64,000 nt of DNA from Candidatus Angelobacter sp. (lineage in GTDB: Bacteria > Acidobacteriota > Terriglobia > Terriglobales > Acidobacteriaceae). The translations under genes were made by a program, and so were the position numbers. The notes beneath the pieces were generated by a model. That model did not search any database. It saw only the letters and a list, made by a program, of their open reading frames with translations, and was not told where the DNA came from. Shown here piece by piece: positions 3,583-4,179 of this stretch (its first letter is position 1; each line of letters begins with the position of its first letter). The stretch covers positions 1,463 through 65,462 of the forward strand of contig DASXGZ010000006.1 of the NCBI GenBank assembly GCA_036488825.1, written 5' to 3'.

Positions 3583-4179
3583 CTATGCCGTGGCGACCTT
3601 CATCAACCGGCCTTTCCCAGTAAGTGTGCTGAGATCGATGTCCGCGATGCATCGAACGTTGACATAATCAAGGGTCAGATTACCCTCGACGTGGGCGACC
3701 CCTTTCCCCTTGTCAAAATCAGCATTGCTGAAGTCCGTGCTGGCCGGTTCCAGACGGAACCCAAGTTCGGTTCCTCCCTTGGTGCCCGTGAACTTGATAT
3801 GAACGTACTTCCTGTCCACGGCGTCTTTAAAGAGCTTCAAAGTTTTCTCAGGCCGCAAGCCCACTTCCACAGGATGATCACCTTCACACAGACGCTCAAC
3901 CAGGCTCTTCGGTCGGGGAGCGTTGGGATCCGGAGGTGGTGGAGGCGGAGGGGGGTTCTTGGCTAATTCCTCCATCTTCTTCCGCAGACTGAGCGGCCTC
4001 ATGTCAGTCCAGACCTCTTTAATATGGGCCAGGCACTCGGCTTTCAATCCGGTTTTTCCGCCGTCTCTCCAGCCCGGCGGATTCTGCTTGTACTCCGGCC
4101 AAATCGAGTATTGCTCCTCGTGATTGACTACAACCTTGTATATGGTAGTGTCTTCTCTATCAGAATCGTTCCAGCTCAT
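3583..4179 (-). CDS. MbtH-like protein fused through a poly-proline linker to an unrecognised ~105-aa C-terminal domain
   Basis: [28 protein letters not shown] is the MbtH signature (three conserved Trp). It is followed by PPPPPPPP (3932-3955) and a beta-rich tail. ATG 4179 has GGAG 9 nt upstream. An alternative GTG at 4248 overlaps the upstream stop (GTGA). Confidence 0.8.

Follow-up and report, generated by a model that had tools for sequence, protein, structure and literature searches.

The window analyzed here, a 64,000-nt stretch of a Candidatus Angelobacter sp. contig, carries at 3583–4179 a gene that lies on the same strand as two NRPS genes, a methyltransferase-like gene, and a type II thioesterase (TE-II) gene, and is thus within an NRPS cluster (Table 1). 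This is the minus strand; the sequence-only reading, from which the present analysis started, did not give the strand. The minus-strand translation of 198 aa is stop-free and contains every motif quoted by that reading, and its description of one gene encoding an MbtH-like part, an eight-proline linker, and a further part of ~105 aa is borne out by this intact frame; on translation, the plus strand of 3583–4179 is a broken frame. A GTG at 4248 is a possible longer start of the mechanically called open reading frame, but the ATG at 4179 was preferred because a GGAG precedes it by 9 nt and because homologs, which are ~195–205 aa in length, have N-termini that match it. The second NRPS, which runs off the window, extends on the contig to 1256 aa and carries an FkbM-type methyltransferase inserted in its adenylation domain.

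Table 1. Genes, domains, and signals at and around the fusion gene (window coordinates).
Feature	Coordinates	Strand	Basis and remarks
Second NRPS, runs off the window; condensation-like and adenylation domains	3..2306	-	Pfam; second candidate client
Type II thioesterase, 266 aa	2657..3457	-	Pfam Thioesterase, E 2e-51; 125 nt past the fusion-gene stop
Whole fusion gene, 198 codons plus stop (3583-3585): MbtH-like domain, linker, CBF-beta-like domain	3583..4179	-	Open frame, translation, full-length homologs 75-82% identical
CBF-beta-like domain (P0122), residues 92-198, 107 aa	3586..3906	-	Pfam, profile vs. PDB, AlphaFold2, Foldseek, VIA, column conservation
Linker, residues 74-91, with eight consecutive prolines P76-P83 (nt 3931-3954)	3907..3960	-	Sequence
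MbtH-like domain, residues 6-73, with W27/W37/W57 and WTDMRP	3961..4164	-	Pfam PF03621; PDB PA2412
Shine-Dalgarno-like GGAG	4189..4192	-	Read from sequence; 9-nt spacer to ATG at 4179-4177
Methyltransferase-like, 287 aa, upstream in the same operon	4245..5108	-	Weak Pfam Methyltransf_25; 65-nt gap to the fusion start
Loading NRPS, 1796 aa: acyl-AMP ligase, carrier, condensation, adenylation, thiolation	5542..10932	-	Pfam; adenylation domain is a candidate MbtH client

MbtH-like proteins (MLPs) bind in a 1:1 ratio to the adenylation-domain core, whereby the domain stays soluble and active, and are recognized by the motifs NxExQxSxWP, PxGW, and WTDxRP and by three invariant tryptophans. The N-terminal part of the window protein matches Pfam PF03621 over residues 6–55 (73.5 bits against a cut-off of 27, E 8.8e-21), has PA2412 as its nearest solved structure (E 3e-27, residues 7–73, aligned end to end), and retains all of the signature tryptophans (W27, W37, and W57) as well as WTDMRP. 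Judged by sequence, this part is a canonical MbtH-like domain, and binding of an adenylation domain by it is predicted here. At 198 aa and with a second folded domain, as opposed to ~60–95 aa for stand-alone MLPs, the whole is an MbtH-domain protein rather than a classical stand-alone MLP; the one other MbtH gene in the genome is normal (~80 aa, contig C11) and has a convergently oriented htpG ~100 bp away.

The C-terminal part had been described as beta-rich, ~105 aa long, and not assignable to any family. The first two statements agree with an AlphaFold2 model of the domain (pLDDT 96.3), and the third no longer holds, since profile and fold comparisons assign the domain to the CBF-beta family (PF02312). 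On the window protein itself the Pfam CBF_beta score is 23.6 bits, below the cut-off of 25, whereas two stand-alone relatives exceed that cut-off (P0125, 30.4 bits; P0141, 27.8 bits) and a precomputed PF02312 tag is already attached to many close homologs. A single-sequence phmmer search of the domain against the PDB gave nothing up to E 10; a profile built from 54 stand-alone relatives and run against the whole PDB recovered 13 distinct sequences, all of them CBF-beta (E 7e-5 to 2e-4, 86 of 113 positions), and no non-CBF-beta match up to E 10. The same alignment was fed to AlphaFold2 to model the C-terminal domain alone, and protein X (described below) was modeled on its own. With the C-terminal model, the Foldseek check proposed by the sequence-only reading returned CBF-beta (TM 0.77, probability 1.0), the top 30+ matches all being CBF-beta at TM 0.74–0.78 and probability 1.0, and complexes of CBF-beta with the Runt domain and with HIV-1 Vif were among the structural matches. 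A VIA structural scan of the predicted model placed 1e50_B at Z 13.6 (rmsd 1.9 Å, 99 of 107 residues, 21% identity), with the first unrelated fold at Z 4.6. The bacterial domain of ~107 aa aligns with residues 16–133 of CBF-beta only.

By profile and predicted fold, then, the C-terminal domain is a bacterial CBF-beta homolog, and the predicted CBF-beta fold is placed in bacteria, for which no prior description was found. As far as we know, and in the literature searched, descriptions of CBF-beta are confined to its role as RUNX partner in animals. The sequence-only reading had allowed that the domain might come from a familiar family that is often found fused with MbtH; the family is indeed known, but the literature search found no paper on MbtH with core-binding factor, on PF02312 in bacteria, or on bacterial CBF-beta homologs. 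NCBIfam likewise has no model for the fusion protein, for the relatives of the C-terminal domain, or for the neighboring genes, and source annotations label the homologs simply as “MbtH family.” The genome is 99.5% complete and gave no Runt domain (PF00853) match at E ≤ 1, and thus the partner of the bacterial domain must differ from that of animal CBF-beta.

The fusion had been presented as unusual, with the proviso that a sequencing frameshift might have joined what are really two genes. A database search with the whole protein instead returned 4158 clusters of proteins of similar length at E ≤ 0.001, the best 120 of which are 75–82% identical across 95–100% of their length, and the fusion is confirmed as genuine and common rather than artifactual. 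Split MbtH → CBF-beta-like gene pairs do occur in Chloroflexota, and the loss of one stop codon could fuse such a pair; nevertheless, a frameshift or mis-assembly, or a C-terminal part persisting as a non-functional relic, is effectively refuted by the thousands of full-length fused homologs, by the identity of the C-terminal domain (74% in the near set and 49% in distant fusions, on a par with the MbtH part and much higher than in the linker), by its model confidence (pLDDT 96), and by the codons of the proline tract. The latter read CCC CCT CCG CCT CCA CCA CCT CCG from P76 to P83 (nt 3931–3954), a mixture of four codons with no homopolymer run, which makes a sequencing frameshift unlikely.

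The two domains in the window protein are separated by ~28–30 residues including the eight prolines, and in diverse fusions the linker, counted from the MRP motif, measures 28–41 aa. Across these diverse fusions the MbtH part is 56% identical, the CBF-beta-like part 49%, and the linker, as the least conserved segment, 34%; such a pattern, with both domains conserved and the linker not, marks two functional modules joined by a flexible tether, in keeping with the earlier view of a genuine fusion inside an NRPS operon whose second domain is a separate module. The eight-proline tract to which that view drew attention is present here, but it is no general feature of the fusions, being confined to a close acidobacterial subgroup; the diverse fusions have non-proline linkers.

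To assess the distribution of the domain on its own, as the sequence-only reading had proposed, residues 92–198 were searched exhaustively against 1.84 billion representatives, which gave 369 clusters, many of them proteins of ~105–120 aa consisting of the domain alone. With a 12-sequence domain alignment, 80 loci were fetched from named genomes of >10 phyla (Cyanobacteriota, Chloroflexota, Acidobacteriota, Nitrospirota, Planctomycetota, Pseudomonadota, Actinomycetota, and others) and annotated by purpose-built HMMs. The domain is fused to MbtH in 35 of the 80 loci, accompanied by a distinct, co-directional MbtH gene in 25 (within 725 bp in 24 of these), and without MbtH in the fetched flank in 20. 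Gene order in the split loci is CBF-beta-like → MbtH in 18 and the reverse in 7. In a maximum-likelihood phylogeny of the domain, five changes of the fused state are needed, of which at least three are forced by well-supported branches; the fusion was thus gained or lost at least three times. Independent fused groups comprise Nitrospirales, a large and mostly acidobacterial clade, and one planctomycete, and the nearest to the window protein was one from Candidatus Angelobacter (75%). The functional tie to the MbtH/adenylation-domain machinery that had been deduced from this single fusion is supported by comparison: 60 of 80 loci show fusion or adjacency, either gene order is represented, and the fusion is recurrent.

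Within four genes of the CBF-beta-like gene, NRPS genes were found in 36 of the 80 loci, TE-II in 16, PPTase in 11, NusG-like genes in 10, and HtpG in 6. The 20 MbtH-less loci are mixed: some follow synthetase genes or sit beside CmlA/TauD hydroxylases, and others adjoin sensor kinases, an M49 peptidase, or a molybdo-hydroxylase instead of NRPS genes, so that the family is not exclusively tied to NRPS clusters. In the six HtpG loci, which belong to two lineages (five closely related loci of the acidobacterial Pyrinomonadaceae type and a single cyanobacterial one), htpG starts or ends 16–37 bp from the CBF-beta-like gene, and the order in the five acidobacterial loci is NusG-like, HtpG, MbtH-CBF-beta, ankyrin-X, HTH, NRPS. 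Two further peculiarities were observed among family members: five of them (P0127, P0150, P0223, P0224, and P0266) have signal-peptide-like N-termini, a misfit with a purely cytoplasmic NRPS role, and in another (P0235) the CBF-beta-like domain is fused to an EcKL-type small-molecule kinase.

The third most frequent neighbor family of the CBF-beta-like gene is a protein of ~100 aa, here called X, with an N-terminal GKYCKAY, a core of LYLQENYVVTDGIF..ENIIFD.VTPEW..FC, and two near-invariant cysteines. X is encoded in the flank of 33 of the 80 loci, mostly directly beside the CBF-beta-like gene, and is absent from the flank of the other 47; by locus type it accompanies 21 of 25 split, 11 of 35 fused, and 1 of 20 MbtH-less loci. 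There is also an ankyrin-X form of ~215 aa with an N-terminal ankyrin domain, and one natural X-CBF-beta fusion (P0272). The family has 2414 members at E ≤ 1e-5, none of which carries a Pfam tag on the X part, and the ESM Atlas gave no lead for X. The model of X is of medium confidence (pLDDT 74) and has no Foldseek match to solved folds at E ≤ 0.001 and a best VIA Z of 3.1; with no recognizable fold, X thus gives no independent sign of being a CBF-beta-type client.

Co-occurrence was examined in a sample of 401 genomes of the phylum to which the window belongs. The CBF-beta-like domain is encoded in six of these, and matches to the X part (E 1e-19 to 1e-53) were found in exactly the same six and nowhere else among the matches listed; MbtH is encoded in 30 of the 401, including all six. 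The X alignment still held ankyrin columns and therefore matched 130 genomes, so the result was read by model range: the listed matches outside the six genomes, which extend to E 7e-7, cover ankyrin positions only (to ~73). These tallies include two unpublished genomes, one with an ankyrin-only match (G049) and one that is MbtH-positive and CBF-beta-negative (G152), on which nothing else here depends. The six positive genomes fall in five families and, as relatives, are not independent. In three of the six the stand-alone CBF-beta-like gene, X, and MbtH are unlinked, and one genome (G176) has a second copy of X directly after an MbtH gene. On these gene-content patterns, X appears a better candidate than the adenylation domain for the direct partner of the CBF-beta-like domain, and the joint travel of the domain, MbtH, and X across phyla suggests an undescribed NRPS accessory complex.

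In the genome under study X is present once, on another contig (C17:16779-17051), as the last gene of an NRPS operon that consists of a truncated synthetase, two TauD-type hydroxylases, a 3955-aa synthetase, and X, and is followed by a MacB/FtsX exporter. The window cluster is cut off where its own contig (C15) begins, and further synthetase fragments lie on C27, C30, C33, and C36; for this reason C17 may be the continuation of the window cluster. The starting ends of C15 and C17 share no sequence overlap, and the domain order demands at least one missing T-C-A stretch between them. The gap at 5109–5541, upstream of the methyltransferase, was considered as a relic of X and rejected, its frame 1 being full of stops and the only X match in the genome being the one on C17.

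Conservation within the bacterial family was compared with the partner-binding face of CBF-beta, formed by the G61–Q67 strand and N104. The most conserved block, FT.T.GGTELG (F130–G140 of the window protein, F39–G49 of the domain), aligns with CBF-beta F57–S65, and L170-D171 aligns with CBF-beta L103-N104; the column aligned with N104 is strictly D or N (27 D and 26 N in 54 sequences). The motifs T-G-T-x-L, L-[ND], and G-x-G-x-L are common to the bacterial domain and CBF-beta. In CBF-beta, RUNX binding is abolished by N104K (PMC4643775). The conserved residues of the bacterial family would therefore map to the protein-binding face of CBF-beta, a correspondence drawn from aligned sequences.

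Every CBF-beta function known to us is the non-catalytic binding or stabilizing of a partner, be it the RUNX Runt domain or HIV Vif, and this, together with the conserved residues that align with the binding face, is the ground for proposing the C-terminal domain as a protein-binding head. The window protein is accordingly interpreted, with a probability of about 0.55, as a non-catalytic, two-headed NRPS accessory whose MbtH head grasps an adenylation domain while a second protein, likely X, is held by its CBF-beta head. Head 1 (residues 6–73) would bind the adenylation domain, head 2 (residues 92–198) would hold its partner through the face that corresponds to the one by which CBF-beta binds RUNX, and the flexible tether of ~30 residues, proline-rich in this lineage, would keep that partner at the synthetase. 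The most likely partner of head 2 being the ~100-aa X, a complex of MbtH, CBF-beta-like domain, and X may assemble on adenylation domains; protein binding by head 2, the identity of its partner as X, and action of the complex on adenylation domains are steps that we infer. Several observations sit less easily with such an adaptor: MbtH is missing from the flank of 20 of the 80 loci, some of them beside non-NRPS genes; the domain, X, and MbtH are unlinked in three acidobacterial genomes; some family members have signal-peptide-like N-termini; X is on another contig in this genome; and the window protein falls just below the Pfam CBF_beta threshold.

The same neighborhoods could be read as those of an inter-subunit scaffold, in which MbtH holds an adenylation domain, head 2 binds another synthetase domain (a condensation/interface domain or the FAAL) or TE-II, so stapling together two subunits or a subunit and an editing enzyme, and X is a separate accessory. 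The position of the gene between two NRPS subunits and adjoining TE-II would suit this, as would the proximity of TE-II (16 of 80) and NRPS genes (36 of 80) within four genes and the 47 loci without X in the flank, but stand-alone members occur far from any NRPS gene, and the phylogenetic profile of the domain follows that of X (6/6, and 0/395 among the matches listed), whereas MbtH and NRPS are far more widely distributed (MbtH 30/401); a scaffold is considered unlikely. It is distinctly improbable that the half-open beta-barrel binds a small molecule instead, such as a fatty-acyl starter, an amino acid, or the lipopeptide, for presentation, sequestration, or self-protection. Weak lipocalin/siderocalin matches do follow CBF-beta in the Foldseek results (E 0.07–0.2, probability ~0.2), the signal-peptide-like N-termini would suit extracytoplasmic ligand binding, and P0235 is fused to a small-molecule kinase of the EcKL type; the lipocalin matches are nevertheless poor (TM 0.2–0.28, rmsd 11–13 Å), we know of no natural ligand of CBF-beta itself, the conserved residues would lie on what is the protein-binding face of CBF-beta, and the genes to which the domain is tightly coupled are those of two small proteins, MbtH and X, and not that of a substrate-specific enzyme.

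The HtpG loci bear on a further alternative, in which head 2, with X or ankyrin-X, recruits HtpG to MbtH-held adenylation domains as a client-specific Hsp90 co-chaperone. The 16–37 bp spacing of htpG in six loci of two lineages, the placement of HtpG, MbtH-CBF-beta, and ankyrin-X in one row in five acidobacterial loci, and the stand-alone MbtH gene of this genome ~100 bp from a convergent htpG are all consistent with such an adaptor, and NRPS megasynthases are reported clients of HtpG in a preprint according to which no prokaryotic Hsp90 co-chaperone is known (10.1101/2025.07.01.662645). The literature search found nothing on MbtH-like proteins with HtpG, and against Hsp90 recruitment stand the small number of loci (6 of 80, five of them close relatives and hence few independent events) and the absence of htpG from the cluster in the window; this alternative is likewise improbable. 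A bolder version, in which the CBF-beta-like domain and X form an obligate heterodimer as a bacterial counterpart of CBF-beta with RUNX or Vif, MbtH delivers the pair to adenylation domains, the pair as a client-specific adaptor passes the NRPS on to HtpG, and animal CBF-beta descends from a bacterial protein-stabilizing module of this sort, is a long shot, but if true it would be the first co-chaperone-like system for bacterial Hsp90; the htpG linkage touches the open question of bacterial Hsp90 co-chaperones. The two-headed adaptor remains the preferred reading.

New in this analysis are the co-occurrence of X at the genome level, the X-CBF-beta and ankyrin-X fusions, the recurrent MbtH fusion, the HtpG linkage, and the mapping of conserved residues to the binding face. 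MbtH-like proteins are, to our knowledge, the only widely recognized dedicated helper of adenylation domains, and an omitted MbtH-like protein is a common cause of failed heterologous NRPS expression. The second head and X are carried in thousands of sequences from >10 phyla, the cyanobacteria and the NRPS-rich Acidobacteriota of soil among them, and many clusters may therefore need two more accessory factors than are now cloned. The bacterial domain also bears on the origin and ancestral activity of CBF-beta, its setting again being that of a small partner-stabilizing protein.

Compared with known systems, the CBF-beta-like gene and X belong to an NRPS accessory cassette that they share with MbtH, TE-II, PPTase, a NusG-like antiterminator, and sometimes HtpG; cassettes of small accessory genes are the usual site of synthetase maintenance factors, and unlike the known members of the cassette, the CBF-beta-like domain and X have no described role. 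The likeness to CBF-beta consists of the same predicted fold over nearly the whole domain and of both being small non-catalytic proteins, although the bacterial domain is without the ~15 residues at the CBF-beta N-terminus and without its C-terminal tail, and although CBF-beta pairs with a Runt domain whereas the bacterial domain is encoded with NRPS accessory genes in a genome that encodes no Runt domain. With stand-alone MLPs such as MbtH, YbdZ, and PA2412, the last of which is the pyoverdine-pathway MLP of Pseudomonas aeruginosa, the window protein shares a full MbtH domain in its first 73 residues and the location of its gene in an NRPS operon next to TE-II, and it differs from these proteins of ~60–95 aa by an extra 125 residues of linker and second folded domain. 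SlgN1 (PDB 4gr4/4gr5), an MbtH domain fused to an adenylation domain, is a weak PDB match to residues 22–63 of the window protein, and in both an MbtH module is fused to another polypeptide and tethering is tolerated. In SlgN1, however, the fused partner is the client adenylation domain, whereas in the window protein it is a small non-enzymatic C-terminal domain, and the fusion would thus add a second binding head rather than a link between chaperone and client.

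Within the linker that joins the MbtH-like and CBF-beta-like domains of the fusion protein, the run of eight prolines is followed by two further PxxP-type prolines; among homologues, the length of the run varies from one to nine, and stalling of the ribosome at the eight-proline run would be expected in the absence of EF-P. An FkbM-type methyltransferase domain (Pfam Methyltransf_21, residues 951–1148) interrupts the adenylation domain of the downstream NRPS, where it is inserted between the adenylation core and the AMP-binding_C part.

Features of the window and of other contigs of the same genome (G000)
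Feature	Position	Contig	Strand
Eight consecutive proline codons	window 3931-3954	C15	
Downstream NRPS	L093:1-3768 (window 3-2306 and 1462 bases preceding the window)	C15	
Two TauD-family hydroxylase genes	L090:2049-4205	C17, outside window	
Small protein X	L090:16779-17048	C17, outside window	
htpG (Hsp90)	L092:5812-7755	C11	
Second, stand-alone MbtH gene	C11:29886-30032	C11	minus

The NRPS cluster of the window continues past the start of its contig, and the first bases of contig C17, which also encodes a 3955-aa NRPS, fall within an NRPS gene; thus, C17 may be the source of TauD-family hydroxylases for the His-less interface-type condensation domain (window ∼1875–1907). On C11, the second MbtH gene and htpG are convergent and ∼100 bp apart, followed by a class III aminotransferase gene, and this MbtH gene is distant from every NRPS gene detected in the genome by tblastn.

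A conserved cassette lies 5′ of giant NRPS genes in five Pyrinomonadaceae-type acidobacterial loci (L028, L030, L031, L034, and L035), in the order X, TPR/winged-helix regulator, NusG-like protein, HtpG, MbtH-CBF-beta, ankyrin-X (X with an N-terminal ankyrin domain), and HTH protein, and therefore contains a pair of X paralogues as well as an Hsp90 of its own. Elsewhere among the homologues, P0127, P0150, P0223, P0224, and P0266 begin either with a hydrophobic N-terminus resembling a signal peptide or with a long, acidic leader of low complexity, and P0235 (454 aa) joins an EcKL-type kinase domain to the CBF-beta-like domain; these architectures suggest roles for CBF-beta-like proteins besides NRPS assistance.

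Locus L015, labelled Candidatus Gracilibacteria, carries nearly the same genes as L011 (Hydrococcus sp.) and a nearly identical CBF-beta-like sequence (branch lengths of 0.017 and 0.031), and its NRPS cluster looks like a mis-binned cyanobacterial contig. In both loci and in L018, which form a cyanobacterial set, genes for the CBF-beta-like protein, MbtH, and TE-II, in that order, are directly followed by a penicillin-amidase gene (PvdQ-like Ntn acylase), which fits siderophore-type products that are lipid-primed and subsequently deacylated.
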